Below are positions 3,573 to 57,915 of a stretch of 64,000 nt of DNA, one piece after another. The notes beneath the pieces were generated by a model. It was not told the DNA's origin. It saw only the letters and a list, made by a program, of their open reading frames with translations, and did not search any database. Made by a program: the position numbers and the translations under genes. The DNA is taken from NCBI GenBank assembly GCA_014728035.1, contig WJMJ01000101.1:57358-121357 (forward strand), written 5' to 3'. This DNA is from Promethearchaeota archaeon (GTDB lineage Archaea > Asgardarchaeota > Thorarchaeia > Thorarchaeales > Thorarchaeaceae). Position 1 is the stretch's first letter; the number at the start of each line of letters is the position of its first letter.

Positions 3573-4742
3573 ATGATAGAAGAATTACGTAGTCAATTAA
3601 AGCGTTACGAAAACATCATTGAAAACCGCAAAATAAATCCGGTTGAAGAAAATCCTGAATCTCAGCGTATATGGCAGAACCGTATTTGTGACCGTATGGA
3701 TGAGATCAGGGATAAAATCAAGTCACTAGAACAGAAACAAAATCATACCCACAGCAACGCCAAGAAAATCATTTTGAAAAATGAACAATCTCCAGGTGAT
3801 ATTGTGATGTTAACTGCGGCGGTACGTGATCTGCATCTGAGCCATCCTGGGAAATTTATTACGGACGTCCGCACCTTATTCCCAGATATTTGGTTGCACA
3901 ATCCATATATAACGTCACTTAATGAAGAAGACGATGATGTGGATGTTATAGATATGCAATATCCAATTATACATAATAGTAATGATGGGGCTTACCATTT
4001 TATACATGGTTTTAGCATGTTTCTGGAAGATCAACTTGGGATTAGAATTAAGGTGCATAAATTCCAAGGAGATATTTATTTAAGCGATGAAGAAAAATCC
4101 TGGGTCAGCATGGTCGAGGAACATTATACACACGAGGATACACCGTTTTGGTTAATATGTACTGGTGGTAAGACTGACTATACTGCAAAATGGTGGATTG
4201 CAGAATATGCACAAGAGGTGGTGGATCATTTTGTTGGCAAGATTCAATTTGTACAGTTTGGTGCGGAAGGAGAAGGACATTATCATCAACGTCTACATAA
4301 TGTGATAGATTTGATAGGCAAAACTGATATTCGTATGTTTATGAGATTGATGTATCATGCGGATGGTGTAGTGTGCCCCGTGACTATGGCCATGCATCTA
4401 GCTGCAGCAATACCAACAAAACCAGGAAAGCCAAAAAACAGGGCATGTGTGGTGACAGCGGGTGGTAGGGAGCCAAGTAATTTTACATTTTACACAAATC
4501 ATCAATATCTTCACACTAATGGCGCGTTGAAATGCTGTGATAATGGGGGTTGTTGGAAAAGTAGGACTGATAGACTGGGCGATGGAGACCATAAAGACAA
4601 CGAATTGTGCGTTGATACTGTGCAATTCAATGGTCGTAAGGTACAGCGTTGTATGTACGAATGCGTGAAGCCAATAGATGTGATCAGAGCAATTGAGAAA
4701 CATTATGATGGTGGGGCATTGAATTTTGGAATATCAACATAA
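3573..4742 (+). CDS. GT9 (ADP-heptose:LPS heptosyltransferase-like) glycosyltransferase with N-terminal coiled coil and Cys-rich C-terminus
   Basis: PGDIVMLTAAVRDL, DLIGKT, MHLAAA; paralog of 46314..47378. Confidence 0.8.
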   Translation: MIEELRSQLKRYENIIENRKINPVEENPESQRIWQNRICDRMDEIRDKIKSLEQKQNHTHSNAKKIILKNEQSPGDIVMLTAAVRDLHLSHPGKFITDVRTLFPDIWLHNPYITSLNEEDDDVDVIDMQYPIIHNSNDGAYHFIHGFSMFLEDQLGIRIKVHKFQGDIYLSDEEKSWVSMVEEHYTHEDTPFWLICTGGKTDYTAKWWIAEYAQEVVDHFVGKIQFVQFGAEGEGHYHQRLHNVIDLIGKTDIRMFMRLMYHADGVVCPVTMAMHLAAAIPTKPGKPKNRACVVTAGGREPSNFTFYTNHQYLHTNGALKCCDNGGCWKSRTDRLGDGDHKDNELCVDTVQFNGRKVQRCMYECVKPIDVIRAIEKHYDGGALNFGIST

Positions 4743-6153
4743 ACTGGGCATCGTATTGCCTACTAATATACGAGGAATCAGAGATAAGATTCTGATTAAG
4801 GAATCTGGTAGGTTCGTATCACAATGTCAAAGTAAACTTAATGCGCTTGTGGCAGTATCAAATTGTGACGATGATATATTGGGATTCAAGGCAGATGTTC
4901 ACATAAAATGTGATAAAGATGGTATTGTGAATCCAACTATCAGAATGATAGATAGATTGAAGAACAAATGTCAATATATAATGAGAGTCACACAAGACAC
5001 AATTATCGATTTTGATGAATTCATAAAGACATTCGATGAGGTTGATGGCACTGATAATTTTATATGTGGTGGCAAGGCATCGCTTAACAACATACAGATG
5101 GAACGCACTAAAGGTAGGGCCAATGCATTAGGAATATCTATTTCTGATGGTAGAGATTACGTGCAGGGCAATGTCATGTTGGCACCTACACGTGTGTGGT
5201 TGGAATATTATTATCGTGTGGCTCAGGTGGTAAAACACTATGGTGATGATTCATTATTGTCTCGTATAGCTAATAAAAATGGCATTGAATTGCGATTTGT
5301 GGAAAAGTTCTGGCAACATAAGCACATAAAAGTAGATAGAGTCAATATTAAGAAACCATTAATAGCTAGTTTCCCGAGATCTGGAACGCACTTTTTAATA
5401 AATACTATTAAAGATAACTTCATAGACGTTGATAATGGGTGGGTAGATGTTGTCCATGGTGTTAAGCACAGGTGGGTTAAAGATGTCAAACCAGATGGTA
5501 GTAATTTGTCAGAAAAGATCAGGGAACAGTTGATCAAATATGGCGAATCGCCCGTGCGCAAACCTCTTAAGACACATTATCAGTTTTACTTCCTGGAGCG
5601 CCATTGGGATGTGATAAAAGAACTCTATGATGTGTTCTATATAATTCGCGACCCAAGAGACGTAATGGCAGCATGCTTCAATTATTATAATAAAACTAAT
5701 TTTGAGATTTTCATAAAAGAGAAGAATTTCTCTAAATTTTTGCGCCATGAGCTTTGGAATGCACATTCAGAGACACAACCATTTTCTTTTAGCCTCGTTA
5801 AACCTCGCAATATAGTTGACAAATGGAATAAGCACGTCCATAGCTGGATGACATTTGTAAATAGAGGCGTGACTTTGATTAAATTTGAGGACTTAAATCA
5901 AAATCCGACAAGAGTAATAAATCATATCGAGAATGAAACGAGTCAGAATAAAATAAATGACAAAATTAAAATAGTTGACATTAATGATAAAAGATATCGA
6001 CCTGATTACGAGGGAGATAATCCGAGAGGTATTGGGTGCTGGAAGCATTATTTTAATTTAGATGACATTGACTGGTTGTATGGGGGAATCAATTTTGCAC
6101 AGATATATACAAATACGACAGCCGAAAACCAAACAGCACACAACATCCATTAA
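4726..6153 (+). CDS. Glycosyltransferase-like N-terminal domain fused to a PAPS-dependent sulfotransferase domain
   Basis: ASFPRSGTHFL (5'-PSB), LKTH, YIIRDPRDV (3'-PB), RGIGCWKHYF; GT-A call for the N-terminus is weaker. Confidence 0.75.
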   Translation: MEYQHKLGIVLPTNIRGIRDKILIKESGRFVSQCQSKLNALVAVSNCDDDILGFKADVHIKCDKDGIVNPTIRMIDRLKNKCQYIMRVTQDTIIDFDEFIKTFDEVDGTDNFICGGKASLNNIQMERTKGRANALGISISDGRDYVQGNVMLAPTRVWLEYYYRVAQVVKHYGDDSLLSRIANKNGIELRFVEKFWQHKHIKVDRVNIKKPLIASFPRSGTHFLINTIKDNFIDVDNGWVDVVHGVKHRWVKDVKPDGSNLSEKIREQLIKYGESPVRKPLKTHYQFYFLERHWDVIKELYDVFYIIRDPRDVMAACFNYYNKTNFEIFIKEKNFSKFLRHELWNAHSETQPFSFSLVKPRNIVDKWNKHVHSWMTFVNRGVTLIKFEDLNQNPTRVINHIENETSQNKINDKIKIVDINDKRYRPDYEGDNPRGIGCWKHYFNLDDIDWLYGGINFAQIYTNTTAENQTAHNIH

Positions 6154-6904
6154 AAAGAAGCTACTCGTCAGAAAATCAAATAAAATTCCGGTTGTGATTC
6201 GTAGTCGAAATAGATGCGAATTTCTAGATGTTACATTAAGAAGTATGATTTCAACCGGAATTTATCCTGATTTGATTATTGATGATGTTAGTGACGATAA
6301 ATTGACTAAACAATATTTGTTCACAGATCAAAAAATGCACATGAGAGTTAGATGGCCAACAGATGCCGAATGGATACAATACGTTGGAAAATTAAATAAT
6401 ACCTGGCACACAAAAGGTATCCGTTATTCTCATAAAGTAGTTCAGCCTACGAATCGCAAGGGTGTGTTGGGTGGTGTGTTTTGGTGTCTAACTTATGCAT
6501 TCAATAAATTTAACGCAGATGCTGTTATATTGATAGAGTCTGATGTACTGTTTTGCTATAAATGGTATGATACTTTAATACAAGAATACAATATAACACC
6601 GGATGCTGGCATTGTTGCTGGTTTTGTTTGCCAATCTGGATTCATACCAAATGTGTTGATACTGGTAACTAGAGATTTATATAACAAAAGATGTATGTCA
6701 TTTAATCGTGAGTATGATATTAATAAAACTGATGGCGATAGGGCATTGAGAAGAATGTGTAAAAATGTGGGGTTAACTGTTAAATGCACTGATAAATCTG
6801 TTTGTCAGCATATTGGATTTATATCATCGTGTCACATGAGGGCACGTAAAAAAGACCGTGCAATAAGTAAAAGCCTAATTGATAGTTTGTGTTTTAATGC
6901 ATAG
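6095..6904 (+). CDS. GT2/GT-A-like glycosyltransferase
   Basis: IPVVIRSRNR..FLDVTLRS, IIDD, LIESDVLF, CQHIG; likely TTG start at 6095 with GGGGGA RBS; paralog of 9238..10038. Confidence 0.7.
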   Translation: MHRYIQIRQPKTKQHTTSIKKKLLVRKSNKIPVVIRSRNRCEFLDVTLRSMISTGIYPDLIIDDVSDDKLTKQYLFTDQKMHMRVRWPTDAEWIQYVGKLNNTWHTKGIRYSHKVVQPTNRKGVLGGVFWCLTYAFNKFNADAVILIESDVLFCYKWYDTLIQEYNITPDAGIVAGFVCQSGFIPNVLILVTRDLYNKRCMSFNREYDINKTDGDRALRRMCKNVGLTVKCTDKSVCQHIGFISSCHMRARKKDRAISKSLIDSLCFNA

Positions 6905-7655
6905 ATATATTCAGATTTATAAACATAAAAGCAAATCTCGTCCTGTTAGGCATAAACAGAACGAAATTCGTATAATATTCAGTTTTATTGTTCCATATCG
7001 TGATAGACAAGAAATGATACCAGGATTGATCAAGAATATAAACAAATATTATAATAATTACGAAATCTTAATCATCGAGCAAAGAAATAATAAACCATTT
7101 ATGCGTGGTCAATTATGTAATCTAGGTTATCAAAGAAGTATTGGTAAATATGTAATATTTATGGATGTTGATGCCAGATTTTTATATAAGATTGATTTGG
7201 TTCCCAAAGACAGACCTATGGTAATGTTTACAACTGTAGTACAAGTGAAAGAAGATGGTGACAAACTAATACCATTAAGCGAAAGTCGTAGATTATCTGG
7301 GTTTGGTCTTTGTACTGCGTTTAGTAGGAAGCAATTTGAAGAATCGAATGGATTTTCAAATTTACCAATTGGGTGGGGATGCGAAGATAATATACTGCAC
7401 AAAAGAGCAAATCTCATACGCATGCCACATAAGATGGGTCATGTATGGCATGGTAATATTGGTTGGCGTGGAAAGACAACAAAGAAGGCACTGGCAAATA
7501 ATAGAAAGATACTAAATGCGGAACGTAATAAAGACACATCACACGATTCTTACAAACATACAACAGGTGTGAATGAAATCAAAAATGTTGCACATCAATA
7601 TGACTACAACCGGTATATTATATACTCATTTGAAGATATAGAAGTGAATAAATGA
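6897..7655 (+). CDS. GT7 (beta-1,4-galactosyltransferase-like) glycosyltransferase
   Basis: IVPYRDR, FMRGQLCNLG, FMDVD, NGFSN...GWGCED. Confidence 0.85.
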   Translation: MHRYIQIYKHKSKSRPVRHKQNEIRIIFSFIVPYRDRQEMIPGLIKNINKYYNNYEILIIEQRNNKPFMRGQLCNLGYQRSIGKYVIFMDVDARFLYKIDLVPKDRPMVMFTTVVQVKEDGDKLIPLSESRRLSGFGLCTAFSRKQFEESNGFSNLPIGWGCEDNILHKRANLIRMPHKMGHVWHGNIGWRGKTTKKALANNRKILNAERNKDTSHDSYKHTTGVNEIKNVAHQYDYNRYIIYSFEDIEVNK

Positions 7656-8473
7656 AGATATTTATCGGTGCACATTGGCCACACCATATACATAAATGGT
7701 TATTAAATTTAATAACGTATTTGCGCCATAATGGTATCGGTGTGGATTACCAAACAAAATTTAATGGTGGTGTTGACATGGCAGAAAGAGCTAGCAAATC
7801 AGATATTGTTATTATCTGGAATGGAGAAGAAGAATGTTATTTACCAACAAAATTGGTATGCAAGGAAAACAATATTCCGTGTTATATTGCAGAAGTTGGA
7901 TATTTTCCGCAGCATAAATTCTTTATATTGGATACAGTTGGAATTAATGCATCATCATCATTGATGAATGATGATTTGTCGTGGATAACAGAAAAACACA
8001 TGGAAAAAGCAAAAAAGAGAAAAGTTGCTCTCATGGGCAAAAGGAAGAGAATTGCTGGTGATTATACATTTGTGCCTCTACAATACTATAGAGATACTAA
8101 TATAACACATCATTCACCATTCAAGGATATGTTTTCTTTTATCAATCATGTTGAGATGAAATTTCGTGGTGATAATGTAATATTTAAAAGGCATCCGCGA
8201 GACAAAACGATATATAATAGTAAATTTCCAGTCGTTACTAGTGGTTCAAGTATAGATTATGTATTAAGATGTAAGAATGTATATGGTATTAATTCTACTG
8301 TGCTATTTGAGGCCGCACTTTTTGGTGTGCCTGTAGAATCAATTGGTGATGGTTTATTAAGGGCACATCGTGGTAATTACGATAAAATTGTTGCTGCATT
8401 GGTCGATAGGGAGATTCCAGTAAATACCACTAATCTTGATTATTGGATAAGACCGATCATAGAAGGACAATGA
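7652..8473 (+). CDS. KpsS/KpsC-like capsule biosynthesis glycosyltransferase (GT107-like)
   Basis: EVGYFP, FVPLQ...D, FKRHP, INSTVLFEAALFG. Confidence 0.75.
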   Translation: MKIFIGAHWPHHIHKWLLNLITYLRHNGIGVDYQTKFNGGVDMAERASKSDIVIIWNGEEECYLPTKLVCKENNIPCYIAEVGYFPQHKFFILDTVGINASSSLMNDDLSWITEKHMEKAKKRKVALMGKRKRIAGDYTFVPLQYYRDTNITHHSPFKDMFSFINHVEMKFRGDNVIFKRHPRDKTIYNSKFPVVTSGSSIDYVLRCKNVYGINSTVLFEAALFGVPVESIGDGLLRAHRGNYDKIVAALVDREIPVNTTNLDYWIRPIIEGQ

Positions 8474-9163
8474 TCACTGCGGCATAATTACCAACGTCCC
8501 CTGCCACTCATTTTGTTGGATTGTAGTTTTGCCTGAAATATCCATGATATAGATTGCAAGTTTGGTTTTGGTCTTATCTGAATATGATATGTACATGTTT
8601 GTTTTTGTGCATTTTGGTATGGGTATAGATGACGCCACATATATTGTGCCTTTCCCAGATACCACAATGGATGGTTTTCCACCGCCATCGATCATTGTAT
8701 ACTTCATACCAGAAAGTTCTTCAGGTACATGTAGCCACACATAATTTCTGTTCCGATAAGCTTTGCCATTCTTGGTTAGCGTTGTAAACGCAAAACCATT
8801 CCCTGTTACTTGAATTGGTGAACGGTCCAGTGCGTCATTAAGCTGCGTTGTAAACATTTCCTTCTTCAGGCGATCAATCTCTTTGAGCAGTACAGAGGCC
8901 GTCCGGATGTCACCCTTCTTGGTGTAGATCTTCATCGTGTCCTGATAGGCTTCGATTGTTTCCTGCTTGAGCTTATCAATCTTCTCAAAATGCTTCTGTT
9001 TGGCTTCTTCGAGTTCCCTATCAGCCTCCTCCTTGTCATGAGCGATACTTCTGATCTTTCGCTTGAGTTGAATGTTTTGGTTGATCACATCTTCCAGAGC
9101 ACCCTCTCCAGCACACACCATTGTACAACTAACACTAAGCACAAGAATAATAAAATAACGCAT
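8474..9163 (-). CDS. Secreted/periplasmic coiled-coil protein
   Basis: N-terminal signal peptide MRYFIILVLSVSCTMVCA, coiled coil, C-terminal beta domain. Confidence 0.7.
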   Translation of the reverse strand: MRYFIILVLSVSCTMVCAGEGALEDVINQNIQLKRKIRSIAHDKEEADRELEEAKQKHFEKIDKLKQETIEAYQDTMKIYTKKGDIRTASVLLKEIDRLKKEMFTTQLNDALDRSPIQVTGNGFAFTTLTKNGKAYRNRNYVWLHVPEELSGMKYTMIDGGGKPSIVVSGKGTIYVASSIPIPKCTKTNMYISYSDKTKTKLAIYIMDISGKTTIQQNEWQGTLVIMPQ

Positions 9164-9237: not shown

Positions 9238-10038
9238 ATGAGTTGTATGTGGATAGGTATAATGATATATAAAATCGCTCGTGGTTATGATCCTCTAGGT
9301 AAGATGGATTTTAATACTGGGCATATGCCAGTTATATTGCGCACTAGAAATAGGCACACATATTTACATATTACTATTAGTAGCCTAGAACTAAGTGGAG
9401 CAAAGCCGGATTTAATTGTAGATGATAGAAGCGATGATGATGATGCACACAAATATTTGTTTACTAATGATCCAGTTGATCTTAATCTAGATATGTGGCC
9501 ACGTATTGTAAGAAAACCACAGACAAACATTGTACGTGGAATATATGGTAAATATGAAACCATACAACCACCAACTAGAAAAGGAGCACGAGGTGGTATA
9601 TATTGGTCGGCTGCATATGGTTTTGCTCGGTTTCCACAGAGCGCAGCTATTATATTAGTGGAAGCAGACGTGTTGTTTTGCGATGGATGGTATCATAAAT
9701 TTTTGGAAGAATATCATAAATCATCTAGAGACGTTGGTATCATATCTGGATTTAAATGTTCCAGAAATTATACTGCACAATTATGGTTGATCACTCGTGA
9801 TGTTTATGTGCGTTCATATGATGATTTCCACAAACATTATAAGACACGTCAAACAGGTGGTGATATTGCGTTGAGAAAGAGTTGTGAACATGCTGGATTG
9901 AAGATTATTAAGACGCCCAGAGCATTATGTCAGCATATAGGATATCAGTCAGTGGCGCATCCACGCAGAGCTAGGAAAGGCAGGGTTCTTATGGTAAAGC
10001 CGAGTTTATTATACTCTAAGTTGTGTATTCCAACATGA
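9238..10038 (+). CDS. GT2/GT-A-like glycosyltransferase
   Basis: PVILRTRNR, IVDDRSDD, LVEADVLF, CQHIG. Confidence 0.7.
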   Translation: MSCMWIGIMIYKIARGYDPLGKMDFNTGHMPVILRTRNRHTYLHITISSLELSGAKPDLIVDDRSDDDDAHKYLFTNDPVDLNLDMWPRIVRKPQTNIVRGIYGKYETIQPPTRKGARGGIYWSAAYGFARFPQSAAIILVEADVLFCDGWYHKFLEEYHKSSRDVGIISGFKCSRNYTAQLWLITRDVYVRSYDDFHKHYKTRQTGGDIALRKSCEHAGLKIIKTPRALCQHIGYQSVAHPRRARKGRVLMVKPSLLYSKLCIPT

Positions 10039-10721
10039 AGTACAATGTCAATAAAGTGATTCCACATAAGATTCAATCTGATTCAATATCATTTTGTATT
10101 TTTTGTAAAGGTAGATTGAAATACGCATTAGTATGTATAAAAAATCTAATTGAATATATTTCAGATAAAGATGAAATCATATTTGTTGACTATTCATGTC
10201 CAGATAATAGTGGTGATGTTATATCGTCTATGCAAAATGAACATATAAATGTAATTCGTGTTTTAAACTGTGATAGTTGGCATATTAATCATGCGCGAAA
10301 TTGTGCTGGTGTTAATTCATCAAAGGATATCATAGTTATGTTGGACTGTGACATTATATTAAATCAAAATAATGTTGATGAGATAAGAAGATTGGAGCAG
10401 GGATATTACTTGAGGTCCAAACTACGAGGTAAAGGCTATGATGGTTTTGTGGCTGTATTTAGATCTGATTATATGGCAGTGTGTGGATATGAAGAAGGTA
10501 TATGTTGTTATGGTCATGATGATAAAGCTTTTTATCATTCTCTTGATAGATTAGGCTTAAAATGTGTCAGGATGAATTCTACGTTTAACCCAATGAATAA
10601 TACCATGGGTGAAAAGATTAGATTCGCACCAAAATCGTCTTTAAATAATGCAATCTATAGACTGCTGCGCAAGAGACATAAATATCGCAATAATGTTGGA
10701 CGTAACTGGGGTCGGGTGTGA
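10035..10721 (+). CDS. GT2 glycosyltransferase with GT7-like C-terminal motif
   Basis: IIFVDY, ARNCAG, LDCD, GYEE...YGHDD; ATGA overlap with the upstream gene. Confidence 0.8.
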   Translation: MKYNVNKVIPHKIQSDSISFCIFCKGRLKYALVCIKNLIEYISDKDEIIFVDYSCPDNSGDVISSMQNEHINVIRVLNCDSWHINHARNCAGVNSSKDIIVMLDCDIILNQNNVDEIRRLEQGYYLRSKLRGKGYDGFVAVFRSDYMAVCGYEEGICCYGHDDKAFYHSLDRLGLKCVRMNSTFNPMNNTMGEKIRFAPKSSLNNAIYRLLRKRHKYRNNVGRNWGRV

Positions 10722-11485
10722 AATATTTATTGGGCAGAAAACATCTGCCATCAATAAAGGTGACTAGAAAGGGCAGCAATATTGGTGATCAAATGCTGGC
10801 GTCATTATTTGTTCATGTTCTCACTAACAACAATATTGATGCTGTTTTAGAATGTAAATTTGATCATCTTTGTAATTGTCCCAAGCCTGTGTCGCATAAT
10901 AAATACACAAATTTTGAATTCAGGTATGAAGACAATAATTATGATTATGCTTACGGAAATATTGTGCAACGCGCTATAAACGCATTTAATAATCGTTTTC
11001 ATACTAATGTACATATGATATGCCCAGATCATATTCCAGTACATTTTAGAAAATTAAACACTCCAAATTATGATGTTGTAATGTCAACAAAATCAAGTGG
11101 TTGGACATTATATAAAGAGTGGCCATATTTTACGGATCTAAAGCACACCTTGCGTCAGATGGGCATTAGTAGTTGTGATATTTCTTATATTCATAATTAT
11201 GCATGTTTGAATTATGTAAACAATGCTAAAATTTATGTGGGGATTGACAATGGTATGGCGCATTATGTGTCACAATTTGCCAATAATAAAGCCATAATTA
11301 TACAAAGTGGGTATACAAATTCAGAATTTTGGTGCTACTATAATTATGATATTATTAAAAATAAAGTTCATTGTAGTCCATGCTCATTGCGTAGTGGATG
11401 TATATTTAACCATGCTTGTATGTCGGAAATCAAAGTAAATACGGTTATTGATCATATTAAACGTAAATTGACACAAATCATATGA
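10718..11485 (+). CDS. GT9-like glycosyltransferase (short)
   Basis: IGDQMLAS, YKEWPYF, VGIDNGMAH, CSPC...C...CM. Confidence 0.75.
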   Translation: MKYLLGRKHLPSIKVTRKGSNIGDQMLASLFVHVLTNNNIDAVLECKFDHLCNCPKPVSHNKYTNFEFRYEDNNYDYAYGNIVQRAINAFNNRFHTNVHMICPDHIPVHFRKLNTPNYDVVMSTKSSGWTLYKEWPYFTDLKHTLRQMGISSCDISYIHNYACLNYVNNAKIYVGIDNGMAHYVSQFANNKAIIIQSGYTNSEFWCYYNYDIIKNKVHCSPCSLRSGCIFNHACMSEIKVNTVIDHIKRKLTQII

Positions 11486-12248
11486 TACCACCAAATATTA
11501 ATTTAGACAAATAATGAGTTTCATCATCGAATTTGTCCATGAACCACGAAAGGTTTTTATATAACTTCCATCGTTCAAGTACTTTGAGTTCTTGACCAGC
11601 TTTATTGCGACCATCAAAACTACTGCCCCGACCAAATTTGCTTACGAAATTTAGACCATCATCATTCCATATGTCGCATAGATCGTTGCTTACTTTCTTT
11701 CTATAATTAATGTCTGATACCCACGAATTAAAATTTATTTTGTATTTATTATTAAGATATTTGGTAATGTCTAGATATTCTTTAGCGTGGGTTTTCCATA
11801 AATCTATATAATTATGGCGGTGTTCTGGTATGCCACGACGTTCTCTGCTTGCAGCCAAATTGAATGGATCCCTAAGTATGATGATATTCTTCATAATGTT
11901 GGTTGGCCCTATAAACCTGTTTATGTTGTTGCTTATTTGTTTTATGTGTGCGTCTTCATAATTTGTGAATAATCCATATTTTCTTGTCGATTTAAATCTT
12001 TTTGTGTCTCTGCGAGATTTTATAGCATTCACAAAATCTGGGTATTGTCTGCCGTGTTCCCATATTGGTGTCTTATATGGATCACCCATTGCATTATTTA
12101 TAAACAATACCTTTCTATGCATCTGTTTAGCAATCCACAATATTATTGCATGTTGACCACCTCTCTTGAGTGAATAGAAAACATATCCATAATGTTGTCC
12201 ACCATTATTGGTATCATGACCATATTTGTTGGTAATTAAATATTTCAT
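11478..12248 (-). CDS. Sulfotransferase-like protein
   Basis: SLKRGGQHAII (PSB-like), ILRDPFNLAASR (PB). Confidence 0.65.
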   Translation of the reverse strand: MKYLITNKYGHDTNNGGQHYGYVFYSLKRGGQHAIILWIAKQMHRKVLFINNAMGDPYKTPIWEHGRQYPDFVNAIKSRRDTKRFKSTRKYGLFTNYEDAHIKQISNNINRFIGPTNIMKNIIILRDPFNLAASRERRGIPEHRHNYIDLWKTHAKEYLDITKYLNNKYKINFNSWVSDINYRKKVSNDLCDIWNDDGLNFVSKFGRGSSFDGRNKAGQELKVLERWKLYKNLSWFMDKFDDETHYLSKLIFGGII

Positions 12249-16657: not shown

Positions 16658-16713
16658 AATTAGAATGTAGTTGTCACAAATATACATATGGATTAGATTG
16701 ATGATGATAAATT

Positions 16714-21827: not shown

Positions 21828-21851
21828 AATATACTCCAGAGGAAATTGATA

Positions 21852-26851: not shown

Positions 26852-26974
26852 TCTGGTCAACAACAATCAATAAACTGTGTATTTGATGCACAAATGACAT
26901 ACATACAGTTGTTGTGCATGTTGACTCATAATATATCCAATTCTCACAAATATAATAAAGATTGGAGCGTATAA

Positions 26975-31646: not shown

Positions 31647-31647
31647 T

Positions 31648-43380: not shown

Positions 43381-43388
43381 GATATAAT

Positions 43389-50597: not shown

Positions 50598-51426
50598 TTG
50601 GCATGGCCAAGTTGCTCAAAGATTATTTGACCATCTTAAAAGTAAGAACATTGATGTAGAGTTATCATGCGAATCTAATTTTAAAAGTGGTGATAAGACA
50701 TTTGAGACACGTAAAGTAATCTATATAGAGGATGATTCTGCCGGTGGATATTATGTTCTAGATTTCAAAGATATGCTTGGTTATAAGAATAATTTTGTTG
50801 TAAGAGAAGTGGTTCATGATGACAGATGCTTCAAAATATTAAAAAGCCAATATCGTAAAGACCATTACATTGACCCACCATACAATAAGATAATTCCATT
50901 TACATACTTCGAGAAGAATCCAGAACTAGTACAATCATTGAGATTGAAAGATGGCCCATCCAAAAGCATTAAAAAGATGTTTTTTAGAGGACAACCATGG
51001 AAAAACAGAAACAAGGTACTAGATAGGATAGACGACATAATTATCCCCAATAGGCTTACTTCCATTGAAGATTACTATAATGATATGAGAAGTCATTGGA
51101 TTGGATTGGCATTACCTGGGTGGGGCAACATATGTCATAGAGAACTTGAATATTTTGCTTTTGATATTGCTGTAATAATGCCAAAGCTGAAAAATACATT
51201 TCATAATGATCTAATACCAGATTATCATTATATATCAGTAGATGTAAATACTACAAAGGATAAATCAAAAGTTATAGCAAGTGGTATCCGTGATGCTTAT
51301 GAATCTGTGGTAGATGATAGAGACAAATTAAACGAAGTAATTAGTAATGCACGTAGGTGGTATGAAGAAAATGTTATGTTTCCAAATAGTATAAAATTAA
51401 TAACAACATTACTGGGTATAATTTAA
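50572..51426 (+). CDS. GT-B glycosyltransferase (GT47/GT90-like)
   Basis: MFFRG, LALPGWGNICHRELE, LIPDYHYI. Confidence 0.6.
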   Translation: MLKIIYYGDWHGQVAQRLFDHLKSKNIDVELSCESNFKSGDKTFETRKVIYIEDDSAGGYYVLDFKDMLGYKNNFVVREVVHDDRCFKILKSQYRKDHYIDPPYNKIIPFTYFEKNPELVQSLRLKDGPSKSIKKMFFRGQPWKNRNKVLDRIDDIIIPNRLTSIEDYYNDMRSHWIGLALPGWGNICHRELEYFAFDIAVIMPKLKNTFHNDLIPDYHYISVDVNTTKDKSKVIASGIRDAYESVVDDRDKLNEVISNARRWYEENVMFPNSIKLITTLLGII

Positions 51427-51618
51427 ATCATCAATACATTTATTAGAGCATGATGCTCGTATGCGTTTTTGTTTTCGTATAAAATCAAGTCTACCATTGC
51501 ATAATGGGCAAGAGACCTCGCCTATAATATCATCATCTAACCTGTTCATCTCTGATAGATGTGATAAAATAGTATTTATTGCCAAACTTCGTTTATTGGT
51601 ATATGTATCCATTATCAT
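51409..51618 (-). CDS. Small Zn-ribbon protein
   Basis: CPLC...CSNKC. Confidence 0.55.
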   Translation of the reverse strand: MIMDTYTNKRSLAINTILSHLSEMNRLDDDIIGEVSCPLCNGRLDFIRKQKRIRASCSNKCIDDLNYTQ

Positions 51619-52334
51619 CTGACAAATTCATCCACAAGTGTATTGCAAGCACTGGGTCTGTGTGCCCTATCTGCGTCAATGTTGTTGAGCGATGATAATT
51701 GTTTACCAATAAATCCAGATATCCATTCAACAGCATGATTATGAGATTTAACAAAGAATTCAGCATCAACATCAAAATAATGTTTTGGTTTATAGCTGTT
51801 CATCATGCGCAATTGATAGAGTATGCTTGAGGCACGCATCTCAATTGGATCCAAACAATCACATTGAACACCCCATGAATTTAAATTGTCGCTAATATGC
51901 CAGCGACTCATGATGTGCATTGGATTTTTACTCCAATACAAGTACTTGGCATTGGGGAATATACTAATAATCCACGGCAACGAGAATATTGTTTCCGGTA
52001 ATTTCCACCCCACCATACCATCATGGCCTAACAATGGATATAGGTATTCATATAAATAACGCATATATGATTCGGTTGGTGGCATGTTCTTGATATGCCA
52101 CTGTAATGGCGGTACATATTCCACACATAGGCCAAATTCCTTGGCCGCATCATACATGTGATCCGCAGGAACCATGTCATAACTATCGTTGGTGTTACCC
52201 AAAAACACACCATTTTTCGATAGTAATTGTGTTATTAATCTGGTTCCAGAATGGCCCCGACCAACAATTATGACTGTAGATGGGTTGTTTAATCTATCTA
52301 GCTCATACCTTAAATTCATTTTCTTCTCTAACAA
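51615..52334 (-). CDS. Sulfotransferase family protein
   Basis: IVGRGHSGTRL, GWKLP, FPNAKYL..SKNP. Confidence 0.75.
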   Translation of the reverse strand: MLEKKMNLRYELDRLNNPSTVIIVGRGHSGTRLITQLLSKNGVFLGNTNDSYDMVPADHMYDAAKEFGLCVEYVPPLQWHIKNMPPTESYMRYLYEYLYPLLGHDGMVGWKLPETIFSLPWIISIFPNAKYLYWSKNPMHIMSRWHISDNLNSWGVQCDCLDPIEMRASSILYQLRMMNSYKPKHYFDVDAEFFVKSHNHAVEWISGFIGKQLSSLNNIDADRAHRPSACNTLVDEFVR

Positions 52335-53229: not shown

Positions 53230-53326
53230 AATATTGTATCCTCATGATTGTATCCTCACTCTGTATATATCTTTTCCTTGATGATTGTGACTAGTATTGT
53301 CAAATATATTGGTAAGGAGATAGATT

Positions 53327-54757
53327 ATGGATGTTGTAGCCAGATTATCTGGTGTGGTCGCTTATGCCGATGGTTCACATCAATCATTTGCTGTAATGAT
53401 GGACGATGAGGGCAGAATATCATATAATGACAGCACGGAATCCAATGATGCAATCGCCCAGGCGCAGGATGATACCACTTGGCTTCAGGATATGATGAAT
53501 TTGCTTGTGTATAATATCCCTTATCTATTCGGTCTGAAGGGACTCAAGTTCTACGGGATAACCAGCAGTAGCTCGTCAAGCATGTCATCAAGCCTATCAT
53601 CAAGCAGCTTATCAAGTAGTTCTAGTACTTCATCATCAAGTTCGTTATCTAGTTCAAGTTCGTCCTCCAGCTTGATATCAAGTAGTAGCTCATCAAGCCT
53701 ATCTTCAAGCTCATTATCGAGCAGTATTAGTTCAAGTAGCTCATCCAGTTATAGCTCAAGTTCATCCTCATCAAGTGTGATATCAAGTTCGAGTTCAAGC
53801 TCGTCATTGTCCTCATCTAGTTCATTGTCCAGTTCTCTATCTAGCTCAAGCTCTAGTTTGTCGAGTAGTTCTTCAAGTTCACAGTCATCATCTAGCTCAT
53901 TATCGTCATCTAGTTCATCATCTAGCTCGTCCAGTTCACAAATATCTAGTTCATCAAGTTCATTGTCTAGTTCAAGCTCGTTATCTAGTTCGTCTAGTTC
54001 TAGCCTTTCTAGCTCAAGTTCTAGCCTATCAAGCAGTTCATCTAGCTCTCAATCATCGTCTAGTTCTTCATCGTCAAGTAGTAGTAAGACCATACTGTGG
54101 GGCGGCGATAGCACATTGATCGCCCAAGAATCTAATATAAAATTGTATTTCCCATTTGAAGAATCTGCTGATCCATATTATGATGCAGTAAATGGTACAG
54201 AAACTCTCACAGATGCCGGTGGTGGTACTTCATTGGATGTTGCTGGTAAAGTTGGTAGAGCGGTAAGAGTACGTCATAGCTCAACACCACCAACAGATAT
54301 TATCAACACATGGGGCAGCGATTATATTGCTGCCAGCGATGACGCTACATGGAGTTTTTGGTTACGTACACCATCGAGTGGGACTGGAACTTTCATGTAT
54401 ATATTTTACCCGGCAACGGGGTATGTCCTTATTCCAGTTGCGGCCACATCAGTAAATATCTCTGATGATAATGGGCAGACTTATAATTTCTCAATACCAG
54501 CGATTGACGATGATGGATGGCATTGCTTCAGTTTGGTGATGCCCAATGCGTCAAATGCTACTCTATATATGGATGGATCATTACAGGACACAGCGGATAA
54601 GGTTCTTGAATTTCCCATCTCATCCGGTGATGCAATGGATATTGGAACTAGTTCTAGATATAATGCTGATCTTGATAGTTTTGGTATTTGGGCTAGTGCC
54701 TGGGGATTATCAGAACACCAAGCGTTTTATAATAGTGGCTCCGGGATAGCACGCTAA
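53327..54757 (+). CDS. Poly-Ser stalk protein with C-terminal LamG domain
   Basis: 174-aa Ser tract; LYFPFEE, WSFWL, GWHCFSLV, LYMDG, YNSGSG. Confidence 0.8.
   Translation: MDVVARLSGVVAYADGSHQSFAVMMDDEGRISYNDSTESNDAIAQAQDDTTWLQDMMNLLVYNIPYLFGLKGLKFYGITSSSSSSMSSSLSSSSLSSSSSTSSSSSLSSSSSSSSLISSSSSSSLSSSSLSSSISSSSSSSYSSSSSSSSVISSSSSSSSLSSSSSLSSSLSSSSSSLSSSSSSSQSSSSSLSSSSSSSSSSSSQISSSSSSLSSSSSLSSSSSSSLSSSSSSLSSSSSSSQSSSSSSSSSSSKTILWGGDSTLIAQESNIKLYFPFEESADPYYDAVNGTETLTDAGGGTSLDVAGKVGRAVRVRHSSTPPTDIINTWGSDYIAASDDATWSFWLRTPSSGTGTFMYIFYPATGYVLIPVAATSVNISDDNGQTYNFSIPAIDDDGWHCFSLVMPNASNATLYMDGSLQDTADKVLEFPISSGDAMDIGTSSRYNADLDSFGIWASAWGLSEHQAFYNSGSGIAR
53564..54085 (+). repeat. Poly-serine coding tract (174 aa)
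   Basis: Direct translation. Confidence 0.95.
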
Positions 54758-54773
54758 CCTAATCGGATTATAA

Positions 54774-57065
54774 ATGATATTTTACAATAATAATCCATAC
54801 TATCTCTATCTGATTGATGGAGATGGCAATGATATCCGATTGCCACCCAAATCCGTGGCTGAATTATCATCATTTTTCTTACGTTATGTGCCCAACCAAT
54901 TAAGTTTAAACCAGGATGATCTTGATCCCTATATAATAACTTCTATTGAAGTCGGTCAGGAAGTTATTATTTATAGTTCCAATTTATCAATAGACGGTTT
55001 ACGTTGTGTTGTTGTGGATAGGGATGAGGTTAATTACGCAGTAAATATTCCTGATGTGGGCAGAGTGTGGTTTCCATATCAAGTGGTGGCATTACCTTCA
55101 ACAAGTAGTTCTAGTTCTTCTAGTAGCCTAAGTAGTTCTTCGAGTTCATCTTCAAGCTCATCTAGCCTATCAAGCTCAAGTTCATTATCTAGCTCATCTA
55201 GTTCGTCTAGCTCAAGCTTTTCTAGCTCAAGTTCATTGTCTAGTAGCTCATCATCGAGCAGCTTGAGTTCTAGCTCATCATACTCTAGTTCATCATTTTC
55301 TTCTAGTAGTTCATTATCATCCTCGTCTAGCTCCTACTCTTCATCATCTTCTTCTAGTAGTTCTTTGTCATCCTCGTCTAGCTCCTACTCTTCATCATCT
55401 TCTTCTAGTAGTTCTTTGTCATCTTCATCAAGTTCATCAAGTAGTTCACTATCATCATCCTATTCTTCATCTAGTAGTTCAAGTAGAAGATCATCATCCT
55501 CGTCTAGCATAAGCTCTTCTAGTTCATCAAGTAGTTCATTATCATCCTCGTCAAGTTCATCTTCTTCATCCTACTCATCATCTAGTAGTAGAGTATCGTC
55601 ATCTAGTTCTAGTTTTAGTTCTTCGTCTTCATCAAGTAGTTCATTATCATCTTCATCAAGTTCATCAAGTAGTTCACTATCATCATCGTCAAGCTCATCG
55701 TCATCATCCTATTCTTCATCTAGTAGTTCGAGTAGGATATCATCGTCTAGTTCTAAATCGTCATCAAGTTCTAGTCTAAGTTCCTCAAGCTCGTCTTCAT
55801 CAAGTAGCTCATTATCATCTTCGAGTAGCTCATTATCATCATCGTCAAGCTCATCTTCTTCATCATATTCATCATCTAGCTCGTCTAGTAGGAGATCGTC
55901 ATCTAGTTCCAGCCTGAGTTCATCATCTTCCTCATCATTGTCTTCATCATCTAGCTCGTCAAGTTATTCTAGCTCAAGTAGTTCATCAAGTTCTCAGTCA
56001 AGTTCTTCTAGCTCGTCAAGTTATTCTAGTTCAAGTAGTAGGAGATCGTCATCTAGTTCAAGTCTGAGTTCATCATCTTCTTCAAGTAGCTCATTATCTT
56101 CCTCATCTTCGTCCTACTCTTCATCTAGTAGTTCAAGTAGTTCATTATCATCCTCGTCAAGCTCATCATCATACTCTAGTAGTTCAAGTAGAAGATCGTC
56201 ATCATCGTCTAGCCTAAGTTCTTCAAGCTCGTCTTCATCAAGTAGTTCATTATCATCTTCGTCAAGCTCTCTTAGTAGTTCAATATCAAGTAGTTCAAGT
56301 TCTAGTCTATCCTCATCAAGTAGTAGTTCTAGCTTATCTAGTTCAAGTAGTTCTAGCCTGTCCTCATCAAGTAGTAGTTCTAGTTCCAGTCTATCTAGTT
56401 CGAGCAGTTCAAGTGCAACAGTTGTTATTCCAGGTGATCTTATAAGTTCAGATTTCACGTCAGATAGAATTTATGTTCATGATGGCATTACTTCTACAGT
56501 AAATGATAGCTTTGCGGCACCAAATAACACAATTGGTGATATGGCCTTTGATGGTACCAATCTTATGAGTTGTGGTGAGGCTGGATCGACAGATAGAATA
56601 TATGTACATAATGGTATTTCTGTAACTATAAGCAATAGTTTTGCTGCTCCAGCATCTGGTCCTAAGGGGCTAACATATACTGGCACAGATTTAATAAGTG
56701 CAGATAGACCATCTGGTGTTATTTATATTCATGATGGTATTTCAAGTACTATACAAAGTAGTTATGCTGGGCCAGATGCCTATATGTCAGGTCTTGCATG
56801 GGATGGTGATAATTTAATTTCATGTGGATATAATAGTGATAAGGTTTATATCCACAATGGAACCTCCTCAACCATAACTAATAGCTTTTCTACACCAGGA
56901 TCAGTGCCGTATGGTCTTACATATGACGGAAATCATTTGATAAGTTGTGATTATGGAACTAACAGAATATATATTCATAGCGGAATAACTTCTACAATTT
57001 CCAACAGTTTTGCAGCACCTAACAATGATCCGAGTGGATTAACATTTAGTGGAGGACCATTATAA
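54774..57065 (+). CDS. Poly-Ser stalk protein with C-terminal 5-repeat beta-propeller
   Basis: 437-aa Ser tract; propeller paralogous to the C-terminus of 20508..21827. Confidence 0.8.
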   Translation: MIFYNNNPYYLYLIDGDGNDIRLPPKSVAELSSFFLRYVPNQLSLNQDDLDPYIITSIEVGQEVIIYSSNLSIDGLRCVVVDRDEVNYAVNIPDVGRVWFPYQVVALPSTSSSSSSSSLSSSSSSSSSSSSLSSSSSLSSSSSSSSSSFSSSSSLSSSSSSSSLSSSSSYSSSSFSSSSSLSSSSSSYSSSSSSSSSLSSSSSSYSSSSSSSSSLSSSSSSSSSSLSSSYSSSSSSSRRSSSSSSISSSSSSSSSLSSSSSSSSSSYSSSSSRVSSSSSSFSSSSSSSSSLSSSSSSSSSSLSSSSSSSSSSYSSSSSSSRISSSSSKSSSSSSLSSSSSSSSSSSLSSSSSSLSSSSSSSSSSYSSSSSSSRRSSSSSSLSSSSSSSLSSSSSSSSYSSSSSSSSSQSSSSSSSSYSSSSSRRSSSSSSLSSSSSSSSSLSSSSSSYSSSSSSSSSLSSSSSSSSYSSSSSRRSSSSSSLSSSSSSSSSSSLSSSSSSLSSSISSSSSSSLSSSSSSSSLSSSSSSSLSSSSSSSSSSLSSSSSSSATVVIPGDLISSDFTSDRIYVHDGITSTVNDSFAAPNNTIGDMAFDGTNLMSCGEAGSTDRIYVHNGISVTISNSFAAPASGPKGLTYTGTDLISADRPSGVIYIHDGISSTIQSSYAGPDAYMSGLAWDGDNLISCGYNSDKVYIHNGTSSTITNSFSTPGSVPYGLTYDGNHLISCDYGTNRIYIHSGITSTISNSFAAPNNDPSGLTFSGGPL
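55104..56414 (+). repeat. Poly-serine coding tract (437 aa) with internal 51-nt perfect tandem duplication (55317-55367 / 55368-55418)
   Basis: Direct translation and alignment by eye. Confidence 0.95.
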
Positions 57066-57370
57066 TGAAATTATGTAAGGTAAAAATCCGCAAGATAAGA
57101 GATGAAAATGATACTCAATGCCAATTTGTATATCCCGACGGTTATAGCGCTAAAATTATCAAACCATTTGCTTATGAAAATCGTGGCAATGAGTATGAAC
57201 ATTGCCTTGCCGAGGTACCAGATGATTTTATATTCTCTAATGATATGGCAGAGATAGATCCCTATACTGCCAAATTACTAGTACATGAATGGGCAGACAA
57301 TGATAAGGACATTTCCTCAGAGATAGATAGAGATAATCTCAAAATATCTAAGGAGAAGTATTGCAAGTAA
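57065..57370 (+). CDS. Hypothetical protein (possible fibre chaperone)
   Basis: TAATG coupling to the poly-Ser gene. Confidence 0.6.
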   Translation: MKLCKVKIRKIRDENDTQCQFVYPDGYSAKIIKPFAYENRGNEYEHCLAEVPDDFIFSNDMAEIDPYTAKLLVHEWADNDKDISSEIDRDNLKISKEKYCK

Positions 57371-57915
57371 TGATTGGCGTGCCCAATATGGGCATGATAA
57401 GTTCTGGCTTGGCGTCCTGGTTGATGACTCATGAAAGATTTGGTCATGACACCAAGATAATACCAATGCAATCATCAATATTTAGGCCATTGACCAAAAA
57501 CCGCAATTATATTAGAGATGTGTTTCTAGATTCTGGGTTTGATTTTTGTTTGCAGTTGGATAATGATATCATACCATGTGATAATCTTATTAATATGGTA
57601 GATAATGATGTAGATATATGTAGTGCACATTTGAGAACTGTAAAAAATTCTCAATTGATGACACTATGTATGCATGAAAGAGACGATGGTTATATACCAC
57701 AGAATGTTGGGAATGGGTTAGTGGAGTGTGATGCTATTGGCGGTGGGTGTATGCTTATCAAACGCGAAGTGTTGGAAAAGGTTGAATTTCCATATATAAC
57801 CAATGAATGTGCTTCCGAAGATTTTGGGTTTTGTAAACGGGCAAAAGAGTCAGGATTTAAAGTATATATGGATTTCAGATTTAAATGCAGTCATTATACT
57901 ATGTGTTATCTCTAG
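57361..57915 (+). CDS. Small GT2/GT-A-like glycosyltransferase
   Basis: IGVP, RN, LDNDI, GGGCMLIKREV, SEDFGFC. Confidence 0.8.
   Translation: MQVMIGVPNMGMISSGLASWLMTHERFGHDTKIIPMQSSIFRPLTKNRNYIRDVFLDSGFDFCLQLDNDIIPCDNLINMVDNDVDICSAHLRTVKNSQLMTLCMHERDDGYIPQNVGNGLVECDAIGGGCMLIKREVLEKVEFPYITNECASEDFGFCKRAKESGFKVYMDFRFKCSHYTMCYL

Follow-up and report, generated by a model that had tools for sequence, protein, structure and literature searches.

The window, by which we mean the whole 64,000-nucleotide stretch analysed here, lies on a 121-kb contig which belongs to a bacterial phage and was mis-binned into a Thorarchaeota MAG. The phage is large and tailed, the contig representing part of it; its bacterial host is probably of the Planctomycetota/Verrucomicrobiota/Acidobacteriota kind, and by its contig it looks like a lytic T4-like phage. 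The contig carries more than 20 glycosyltransferase (GT) domains and five sulfotransferases in total, of which at least 12 GT domains and two sulfotransferases lie upstream of the window, together with two methyltransferases and one radical-SAM enzyme. Within the window, six GT domains lie above the Pfam cut-off, and for about five others the support is weaker. The first-pass annotation, made from the sequence alone, had counted about 14; genes 10718 and 48436 and the N-terminal part of 4726 were not confirmed as GTs, and instead of three GT9 genes there are just two in the whole bin.

Many of these enzymes are found in two clusters, glyco-islands C and D, with all features on the forward strand unless stated otherwise. 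Glyco-island C begins with the GT9-like gene g3573 (3573-4742; PF01075, 3.1e-6, above cut-off). The adjoining two-domain protein (4726-6153) carries Sulfotransfer_1 at residues 212-401 (PF00685, 2.2e-11) and an N-terminal half for which no family was found. A probable GT-A/GT2-like enzyme (6062-6904), which has no Pfam match, was assigned from protein-atlas features, which place it with viral GT2 clusters (0.97), and its paralogue g9238 (9238-10038; 37% identity) is a probable GT-A on the grounds of that paralogy. Other genes here encode a GT7/GT2-like GT-A enzyme (6879-7655; Glyco_transf_7N 2e-9, 7C 2.6e-8), a KpsS/Capsule_synth-like glycosyltransferase (7652-8473; PF05159, 1.9e-10), a GT2 enzyme (10023-10721; PF00535, 1.4e-7) and a protein without an identifiable family (10718-11485). 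Glyco-island D is headed by a papain-like C1 peptidase (45321-46262; PF00112, 4e-21), followed by the second GT9-like gene, g46314 (46314-47378; PF01075, 2.7e-6; 51% identical to g3573), a GT4 enzyme (47375-48439; PF00534, 1.4e-8), a gene of no recognised family (48436-49218) and the expected methyltransferase (49185-50597; Methyltransf_24, PF13578, 3.5e-14), whose C-terminal domain has a weak GT8 match (PF01501, E 0.032). Next come a GT90/GT47/Glyco_trans_1_2-like enzyme (50572-51426; atlas features 0.97, structure TM 0.79) and, on the reverse strand, a sulfotransferase (51615-52334; Sulfotransfer_3, PF13469, 1.3e-8).

Three sulfotransferase domains had been proposed for the window, and all three were recovered: those at the C-terminus of 4726 and in 51615, and a third in g11478 (11478-12248, reverse strand), a protein without a Pfam family that was assigned by its fold and PAPS motifs. 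Its conserved motifs are RSGxH and RDPxxxxxS, its best 48 Foldseek matches are all PAPS sulfotransferases, and it has a paralogue at C70:24323-25108. Given that 10 of the 50 viral records with GT9 also contain PF00685, several of these occurrences falling within the GT9 locus itself, and that the g11478 family adjoins GT9 in 13 viral loci, sulfation of a glycan in this phage is plausible. As had been noted, Pfam finds no flippase, polymerase or sugar-nucleotide genes in the window, nor any lipid-carrier or export genes, and genes for ADP-heptose (GmhA-like) or PAPS (APS kinase) are absent from the phage contigs. The claim that the enzymes lack membrane segments holds for every enzyme with an above-threshold Pfam match, none of which has a TM-like segment, but the putative GT 6062 contains one hydrophobic 19-mer (KD 1.98). 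The non-GT gene 8474 has a signal-like N-terminus.

The window also encodes the four proteins with long serine tracts that had been described, with tract lengths of 58, 82, 174 and 437 residues. The first (14963-16657) consists of an N-terminal domain with short collagen-like GXY runs, an 82-residue tract (residues 416-497, 88% Ser) and a Cys-rich C-terminus, and has diverged copies on bin contigs C27 and C140 and in viral record G001. The second is a baseplate protein (16714-20511; Tail_P2_I, PF09684, 3.1e-8) with a 58-residue tract at residues 967-1024, a LamG domain (PF13385, 3e-20) and short terminal poly-Ser. It is interrupted by an insert which includes a gene for a LamG and repeat (propeller-like) domain protein (20508-21827; PF13385, 1.6e-13); the C-terminal piece of the ancestral protein (21846-22664) corresponds to about residues 1000-1280 of a single baseplate ORF in G001-G003, and in relatives residues 1-961 are joined directly to the g21846 part. 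The third (53327-54757) has a 79-residue N-domain that shares 94% identity with an ORF of contig C74, a 174-residue tract (residues 80-253) and a LamG-like C-domain, while the fourth (54774-57065) has a 110-residue N-domain, a tract of 437 residues (111-547, 87% Ser) and C-terminal repeats of about 42 residues (propeller-like), its C-terminus being 66% identical to the last 211 residues of the 20508-21827 protein. The tracts use all six serine codons in about the proportions seen elsewhere in the phage and are thus kept at the protein level rather than as a simple DNA repeat. Only one of the four, the baseplate protein, is demonstrably of virion type; by our proposal the other three would reach the virion as well.

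The two longest tracts belong to one operon. Here a 101-residue protein to which we assign no function (57065-57370) has a start that overlaps the g54774 stop (TAATG), and a small GT-A glycosyltransferase (57361-57915), whose likelier start is ATG 57370, overlaps the stop of g57065 in the same way, bearing out the proposed translational coupling. The assignment of 57361 is based on phrog_1574 (1.6e-10), a PHROG annotated as glycosyltransferase (7.7e-4) and a DxD-type LDNDI motif, with Pfam GT2/Anp1 matches falling below threshold; only two homologues were found among 5.8 billion proteins. A promoter-like motif, CAAA[N]ATA, recurs 25-37 nt upstream of glyco-island D, of the operon with the Ser tracts and of the gene for the baseplate protein (for example CAAAGATA 25 nt upstream of 45321, and CAAATATA 26 nt upstream of 53327).

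The association between the two kinds of genes extends well beyond this phage. Homologues of the GT9-like genes g3573 and g46314 are present at 79 IMG/VR loci. A poly-Ser tract lies within 10 kb of the GT9-like gene in 36 of these, whereas among 57 control windows (20 kb each, placed far away from GT9 on 19 of the same contigs) just 2 contain one (p = 9e-9). The difference persists for dereplicated loci (23/59, p = 1.5e-6) and within those 19 contigs (7/19 near GT9, p = 6e-4). From GT9 to the closest poly-Ser ORF the median distance is 640 bp, with 17 of the 36 loci below 500 bp, and same-strand orders at these loci include polySer-GT9-GT4 (L092, L095/L114), polySer-GT9-GT4-MT-MT-GT2 (L105) and polySer-GT9-sulfotransferase-like (L064/66/67). 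Other genes of the islands recur there as well: homologues of the GT4 enzyme 47375, a conserved partner, adjoin GT9 in 25 viral loci, those of 49185 and 10023 are present in 19 and 18 GT9 loci, respectively, and a homologue of 50572 directly follows GT9 in L065. On the GT9 tree the poly-Ser neighbour requires at least 10 changes on well-supported branches, meaning that many lineages show it; the viral tracts beside GT9 are up to 722 residues long and likewise draw on all six Ser codons, and GT9-like genes adjoin poly-Ser ORFs in bacterial contigs too. Against this, 43 of the 79 loci have no poly-Ser tract within 10 kb, and three phage relatives (baseplate protein 35-39% identical) carry GT9, GT4 or GT2 genes and no Ser tract longer than 22 residues, so at least some of the enzymes need no tracts. 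The neighbourhood may also arise partly from both kinds of genes sitting in variable fibre regions.

This bears on an alternative in which the targets are glycans of the host envelope (LPS core, O-antigen, capsule or another surface polysaccharide), remodelled during infection, e.g., for superinfection block or progeny release, with the tracts being plain linkers and their adjacency that of accessory genes in a variable fibre region. GT9 is the family of LPS heptosyltransferases, which also lack TM helices, the window encodes a KpsS-like capsule enzyme, and the tract-free relatives retain GT9/GT4. The AF2 model of g3573 (pLDDT 95) has VIA Z scores of 24.0 to 3tov, 21.0 to WaaF, 20.3 to TibC (over 264 residues) and 19.3 to WaaC; as modelled, it fits the LPS enzymes and TibC about equally, and the fold search cannot separate the two. 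Long, near-pure Ser linkers with mixed codons also connect independent domains in secreted carbohydrate-active enzymes of Saccharophagus and Teredinibacter, for which we know of no dedicated neighbouring GT. Those linkers are read as flexible spacers (PMC2386152, PMC2699552), which counts against glycosylation of the phage tracts, and a preprint classes the GTs of huge phages as envelope-associated (10.64898/2026.10.24.761521). However, envelope remodelling leaves unexplained both the frequent immediate same-strand pairing of poly-Ser and GT9 in unrelated phages and bacteria and the low control rate within the same genomes. There is also no Gtr-type or other membrane component, and seroconversion would be of little use to a phage of lytic T4-like appearance. 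We consider it unlikely.

The nearest precedents for modification of the tracts themselves are the serine O-heptosyltransferases TibC and AAH of the bacterial autotransporter heptosyltransferases (BAHT; PDB 4RAP/4RB4; PMC4358343), which are likewise soluble GT9-type GT-B enzymes and which hyper-glycosylate, in the cytoplasm, many serines of an adhesin encoded alongside. The phage family keeps five Cys in the C-lobe, the lobe that holds the Cys4 iron finger of TibC, to which they may be equivalent. On the other hand, the N-terminus of the phage model is a helical hairpin, in place of the beta-barrel of TibC, the phage acceptor would be a disordered homopolymeric Ser tract rather than a beta-helix, and the phage-borne system includes many extending GTs and methyl- and sulfotransferases, whereas TibC and AAH add single heptoses. 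A second precedent is the SRRP/SD-repeat adhesins of Gram-positive cocci (GtfA-GtfB, SdgA/SdgB; PMC8561734, PMC3794999), whose long Ser-rich regions similarly lie between anchor and binding domain; dedicated GT4 enzymes, encoded close by, attach O-glycans to them in the cytoplasm. Among PDB sequences, GT4 47375 is best matched by SdgB (4.5e-5), an enzyme that transfers GlcNAc to serine in SD repeats, the match being limited to the C-terminal 95 residues; Pfam detects no DUF1975 in 47375. Unlike those systems, which have SD or SAS repeats and no sulfation, the phage has near-pure Ser tracts and no accessory Sec system, signal peptide or LPXTG.

Phages and viruses are known to glycosylate their own particles at other sites. 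Mycobacteriophages, as cited in PMC12619734 (Freeman et al. 2023, Cell Host Microbe 31:1216), use their own GTs on their own particle proteins, as proposed here, with 2-4 GTs acting on capsid and tail-tube C-termini, in contrast to the more than 20 GT domains, GT9-led and with sulfotransferases, and the presumed fibre/baseplate poly-Ser acceptors of the present phage. A further alternative is that the enzymes do glycosylate phage proteins, of the virion or otherwise, but wholly or mainly outside the poly-Ser tracts (possible targets being a collagen-repeat protein, the capsid or the tail tube), or that they make a free or protein-primed polysaccharide coat. A 982-residue protein with four GT2 domains is encoded two genes downstream of the collagen-repeat protein, and GTs occur in relatives without Ser tracts; yet the GT9/poly-Ser adjacency indicates the tracts, at least for the GT9 module, and we regard other targets as a quite unlikely general explanation, which can be true for other islands simultaneously. 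Very improbable, in our view, is hypermodification of phage DNA against restriction by some or all of the GTs (T4-type glucosylation or more complex relatives). DNA modification is the classical role of phage GTs, glycans of diverse kinds occur on DNA (Pyle et al. 2024, as cited in PMC12619734) and the contig has many nucleotide-metabolism genes (UDG, adenosine deaminase), but the more than 20 GT domains, five sulfotransferases and sugar-type methyltransferases far exceed what is known of DNA glycosylation, the scanned ORFs contained no hydroxymethylase, and the poly-Ser adjacency would have no reason. Giant viruses (chlorovirus capsid glycans, mimivirus fibrils) offer another comparison, in that their many soluble GTs and sugar methyltransferases, some multi-domain, build complex virion-protein glycans without the host membrane pathway. 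These viruses infect eukaryotes, make N-linked or fibril glycans and synthesise their own sugar nucleotides, and to our knowledge poly-Ser acceptors and sulfotransferases are not part of giant-virus glycosylation.

Our preferred reading, to which we assign a probability of roughly 0.55, is that soluble GTs, sulfo- and methyltransferases encoded by the phage build O-glycans on the poly-Ser linkers of its own fibre and baseplate proteins. We found no published description of such a poly-Ser glycosylation/sulfation system in a phage in the searchable literature. The first-pass idea of glycan-decorated tracts gains from the GT9/poly-Ser adjacency in many lineages; for the initiating enzyme the GT9-like protein, together with the GT4 enzyme, is a better candidate than the small GT 57361 that had been stressed, and in fact the best one, and the picture of LPS- or capsule-mimicking glycan stalks is speculation. 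The tracts, the genes with their families and folds, and the recurring proximity of GT9 to poly-Ser genes are shown here; from these we infer glycosylation and sulfation of the tracts, serine as the acceptor, the glycan as the site of the sulfate, the identity of the sugars and the order of the steps. Late in infection, the enzymes would act in the host cytoplasm on linkers that lie between an N-domain serving as anchor and lectin-like tips (LamG, propeller-like or Cys-rich). GT9-like 3573 and 46314, perhaps with GT4 47375, would place the first sugar onto serine, a step analogous to those of TibC/AAH and of the GT4 enzymes SdgB/GtfA, many GT-A and GT-B enzymes would then lengthen the chain, and methyl- and sulfotransferases would cap the glycan last. 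Overall, the core idea, that cytoplasmic phage GTs may decorate the phage's own poly-Ser proteins, is supported by comparative genomics.

The contig that carries these genes is best placed first, since the window is its terminal 64 kb. The contig itself (C70, 121 kb) was assigned by binning to a Thorarchaeota MAG, a 4.3-Mb bin with a contamination of 8.5%. We take C70 for a large tailed phage with a bacterial host, mis-binned with the archaeon: it encodes a bacterial-type RecA (8e-117), a DnaB-like helicase, PolA, a 5'-3' exonuclease, a UDG, a peptide deformylase plus response-regulator receiver and a Tail_P2_I baseplate protein, and it has 49 ORFs in common with three IMG/VR phage records of 234-395 kb. 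Contigs C27, C74, C131, C140, C26 and others of the bin are parts of the same phage or of related phages, and some small contigs bear copies of window genes that are 36-50% identical. The host of C70 is probably a bacterium, the bin being contaminated by at least one large phage; the GT9 genes of C70 reach 69% identity to genes on Planctomycetota and Verrucomicrobiota contigs. Among GenBank phages, no relative was found of the region 25130-31101, of gene 3573 or of gene 16714 (plain gene numbers are start coordinates in the window). The contig also carries a 683-aa ORF with an intein that holds a LAGLIDADG homing-endonuclease domain (C70:29476-31527, L002:9476-11527), while a C2H2 zinc-finger protein (window 31633-32118; PF00096, 5e-6) and a full adenosine deaminase (33572-34525; 1.2e-53) lie amid genes without known function.

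All four serine-tract proteins named by the first-pass annotation were found in the translated window, with tracts of 82 (14963), 58 (the baseplate protein 16714), 174 (53327) and 437 residues (54774) that are 85-88% Ser. The tracts use all six Ser codons in about the same proportions as other genes of the phage, which indicates that the run is maintained in the protein and is no simple DNA repeat; a TCN-only poly-Ser pattern had no match in the window. Non-Ser residues within the tracts are one step from Ser codons in 65 of 101 cases against a background of 55%, which is uninformative. Each tract connects an N-terminal domain with a C-terminal module, namely LamG in 16714 and 53327, a Cys-rich domain in 14963, and propeller-like repeats of about 42 residues in 54774, where the module is 66% identical to the C-terminus of 20508. 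One clear case of how such modules are placed is the baseplate gene. In three relatives the baseplate protein is a single ORF, equal to 16714(1-961) plus 21846; in the window (16714-22664) a poly-Ser, LamG, poly-Ser cassette and the LamG-propeller gene 20508 lie between the two parts, and the C-terminal piece 21846 is a separate ORF, so that lectin cassettes bounded by poly-Ser are inserted into a baseplate gene. More poly-Ser ORFs occur on other phage contigs of the bin, frequently right at contig ends: several of the phage-like contigs C131, C140, C26, C74, C164 and C165 (L004, L006-L010) end within poly-Ser tracts, and C165 is almost entirely one Ser/Thr/Gly/Leu-rich ORF exceeding 700 aa. 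Assembly seems to break at the tracts, in which case the true number of tract proteins exceeds four. Locus searches with the single proteins 16714 and 57361, or with an alignment of 14963 (A2), returned no match.

The two longest tracts share an operon into which a small putative glycosyltransferase (GT) is coupled, and the translational coupling proposed for 54774-57065-57361 is borne out by TAATG overlaps at 57065 and 57370; the true start of the small GT is more likely the ATG at 57370. A search for a conserved pair of small GT and poly-Ser gene led to a GT2-like gene beside poly-Ser on C131, which was rejected because neither it nor its neighbours are homologous to 57361 and its surroundings. 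A promoter-like octamer, CAAA[N]ATA, clusters ahead of gene starts, in that 10 of its 17 plus-strand copies fall within the 8% of the sequence lying 12-100 nt upstream of plus-strand starts (copies for example at 16677, 26947, 45296 and 53301). At a distance of 25-37 nt it precedes the baseplate gene 16714, gene 26975, the operon of Ser-tract genes (53327) and gene 45321, with which glyco-island D opens, a placement that fits common control, probably with late timing.

Turning to the enzymes, about 14 GT-like domains had been proposed for the window. Six have Pfam support (GT9 twice, GT7/GT2, KpsS-like, GT2 and GT4), and five more have weaker support: 57361 (PHROG matches, a DxD-type motif and subthreshold GT2/Anp1 matches), 6062 with its paralogue 9238 (atlas features like those of GT2), 50572 (similar to GT90/GT47 in features and predicted structure) and the C-terminal part of 49185 (GT8, E 0.032). 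No family was found for 10718, 48436 or the N-terminal half of 4726, and the supposed three GT9 genes are two in the whole bin. The proposed three sulfotransferases and single methyltransferase stood, the latter by Pfam, as did two of the sulfotransferases, 4726 (PF00685, 2.2e-11) and 51615 (PF13469, 1.3e-8). The third, 11478, matches no Pfam family and is assigned to the sulfotransferase fold, of PAPS-dependent type, by motifs and a predicted structure: an alignment with 13 relatives conserves RSGxH and RDPxxxxxS, which are PAPS-binding motifs (5'-PSB, 3'-PB), and the best 48 Foldseek matches of a model with a pLDDT of only 73 are all sulfotransferases. A PDB sequence search with the 11478 profile (A7) gave no match, and hhalign comparisons of this profile with single sulfotransferases of the contig were not significant, though the motifs aligned. 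The claim that the enzymes have neither TM helices nor signal peptides holds for the Pfam-supported ones, all free of TM-like segments; the putative GT 6062 has one hydrophobic 19-mer. In glyco-island C (from 3573), a non-GT protein of 229 aa on the minus strand (8474-9163), for which no family was found, is the only one with a signal-peptide-like or lipoprotein-like N-terminus.

The window is only part of the glycan-related repertoire of C70, which includes no fewer than 18 GT domains with Pfam support, five genes of sulfotransferase type and three methyltransferases. Island A, upstream of the window at 14.3-19.3 kb of C70 (L001:14335-19345), encodes a two-GT2 protein, a Glyco_trans_1_2 protein, a GT2 and a GT32/Gb3_synth-like enzyme. 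Island B, on the minus strand at 20.4-26.7 kb (L002:422-6744), encodes a methyltransferase-GT32 fusion, a GT1-like enzyme, a methyltransferase, a Sulfotransfer_2 protein, a paralogue of 11478, a radical-SAM enzyme and a GT2. Also upstream of the window (C70:47784-52984, L003:7784-12984), a collagen-triple-helix repeat protein (PF01391, 2.7e-27) is followed by one gene without known function and then by a 982-aa protein made up of four consecutive GT2 domains; the two may form a second substrate-enzyme pair. No genes for sugar-nucleotide, PAPS or ADP-heptose synthesis were found on the phage contigs.

The GT9-like enzymes are central to our argument. Genes 3573 and 46314 are assigned to glycosyltransferase family 9 (PF01075, heptosyltransferase-type GT-B) by Pfam scores of 27.1 and 27.3 bits (cut-off 22) together with a predicted structure. 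A PDB sequence search with 3573 alone or with a 4-sequence profile (A3) gave no match, and a further profile (A4) matches WaaF 1psw at 3.9e-5. The model of 3573, built from 61 sequences with a pLDDT of 95, is a two-lobe GT-B whose best structural matches are all GT9 (3tov Z 24.0, WaaF 21.0, TibC 20.3, WaaC 19.3), the next unrelated families lying at Z of about 11. TibC, the founding autotransporter heptosyltransferase, heptosylates numerous serines of an adhesin whose gene adjoins its own, has a Cys4 iron finger (C339, C342, C358, C370) inserted in its C-lobe, and begins with a flattened beta-barrel of residues 1-97 (PMC4358343). The model of 3573 lacks this barrel, residues 1-61 forming two long helices, and its alignment with TibC begins at chain residue 96. 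In the C-lobe, all 61 GT9-like sequences have C321 and C327, and at least 90% of them have C322, C346 and C360; the spacing is similar to that of the TibC iron finger, of which these residues may be the counterpart. Further hallmarks of the TibC/AAH (BAHT) enzymes are a dodecameric ring and serine heptosylation, demonstrated there. The predicted fold thus allows a protein-serine transferase without proving one, and LPS heptosyltransferases match the model as well as TibC does, which speaks for envelope remodelling as the function. With no GmhA-like gene on the phage contigs, an ADP-heptose donor would need to be supplied by the host.

A second comparison concerns the GT4 enzyme 47375. SdgB is an enzyme that GlcNAcylates serines of staphylococcal SD repeats; it is the best PDB sequence match of 47375, over the generic C-terminal 95 residues only. 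The GT4 enzymes of serine-rich repeat and SD-repeat adhesins have an inserted DUF1975. With 354 aa (SdgB chains have 504-505) and Pfam matches to GT4 C-terminal families only, 47375 may, to judge by its length, lack the insert. The adhesins have a signal peptide or accessory Sec export and an LPXTG anchor, whereas inspection of the four tract proteins revealed no signal-like N-terminus and Pfam detected no SecA2/Y2-type genes in the window.

The strongest evidence comes from gene neighbourhoods. A search of IMG/VR with the window's two GT9-like proteins, aligned with two relatives, yielded 79 loci, and a poly-Ser tract (score of at least 12) lay within 10 kb of the GT9 gene in 36 of them. Many tracts are very large (722, 568, 505, 400 and 398 residues); they belong to long ORFs, mostly on the GT9 strand, in which each of the six Ser codons occurs. 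In 57 control windows of 20 kb, placed 1/4, 1/2 and 3/4 of the contig away from the GT9 gene on the 19 longest contigs, a tract was present twice, against 7 of 19 around the GT9 gene on the same contigs (p = 6e-4; all loci against control, p = 9e-9; dereplicated set, p = 1.5e-6). In a GT9 protein tree, tract-positive loci are scattered and well-supported branches force at least 10 changes, so the pairing is not one clade counted repeatedly. The nearest poly-Ser ORF lies at a median of 640 bp from the GT9 gene and within 500 bp in 17 viral loci, an adjacency like that of BAHT enzyme and substrate genes; in the window itself, about 6-10 kb separate each GT9 gene from the closest tract gene. Gene orders that recur on one strand are polySer-GT9-GT4, polySer-GT9-GT4-MT-MT-GT2 and polySer-GT9-(11478-like sulfotransferase), and the 79 loci contain homologues of the window's GT4 in 25 cases, methyltransferase in 19, GT2 in 18 and 11478 in 13. 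PF00685 occurs in 10 of 50 GT9-bearing viral records, several times inside the GT9 locus. The link of 11478-like neighbours to tracts is not significant (9/13 vs 27/66, p = 0.058). The non-Ser parts of the neighbouring ORFs are varied (fn3, Ig-like, LamG, Gly_rich_2, DUF2460), as would fit fibres or adhesins. Contigs of Planctomycetota, Verrucomicrobiota and Acidobacteriota also carry abundant GT9 family members, at identities of up to 69%, and 26 of 80 bacterial loci have a tract within 10 kb, a figure that stands without control windows; these loci give a hint of the host range and show that bacteria, too, have the module. Adjacency underestimates genome-level co-occurrence, as in a 108-kb viral record (G038; L195, G038:1-20000) with a GT9 homologue and three poly-Ser ORFs (250-448 tract residues) some 70 kb away.

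We put the probability that the phage enzymes glycosylate the poly-Ser tracts of their own proteins at roughly 0.55. It is no higher because over half of the GT9 loci lack a tract in reach and because of the fit to LPS enzymes, the absence of donor-synthesis genes and the genomic rather than chemical nature of the evidence. Virion glycosylation of the mycobacteriophage type is defined by mass-spectrometric detection of glycan on virion proteins, and the phage of this contig is uncultured. Moreover, poly-Ser linkers can be simple spacers, and the three closest complete relatives carry GT9, GT4 or GT2 genes, yet their longest tract has at most 22 residues and PF00685 is absent. Envelope remodelling with a coincidental GT9/poly-Ser neighbourhood we consider unlikely. 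Sulfation of the tract glycan is rated below tract glycosylation. Only tentatively do we extend the tract-glycosylation reading to a widespread system, shared by phages and bacteria of the PVC/Acidobacteriota type, whose GT9-type enzyme, bearing a metal finger, would place the first sugars densely on homopolymeric serine linkers. In this phage, more than 20 GT domains would then extend the chain, and methyl and sulfate groups would cap it, yielding sulfated, mucin-like brushes on baseplate and fibre proteins.

As the first-pass annotation supposed, such a system with sulfation appears not to have been described in a phage: a full-text literature search found no paper tying phage GT9 or sulfotransferase genes to poly-serine proteins, and recent surveys take the GTs of huge phages as DNA-modifying or envelope-related (PMC12619734; 10.64898/2026.10.24.761521). 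What is distinctive here is the sulfation arm, with three sulfotransferase types of which the one without a family is a conserved GT9 neighbour, together with the extreme number of GT domains and the multi-GT2 protein beside a collagen-like gene. Eukaryotes are the main known source of sulfated glycans, next to a few lipids and polysaccharides of bacteria. If our reading is true, the phage would be the first bacterial virus with a sulfated glycoprotein coat, adding virus particles to the carriers of such glycans, which would bear on adsorption, on resistance to proteases and on how hosts or grazers recognise the particles. A serine run and its enzyme would then also offer a portable "tag plus enzyme" pair for glycoprotein production in bacteria. 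Besides the BAHT enzymes, family GT9 would have another large branch that modifies proteins. Furthermore, many large phages would possess their own protein-glycosylation machinery, whose acceptor is a simple, recognisable serine run, and the fibre and baseplate proteins of uncultured phages would have to be read differently.
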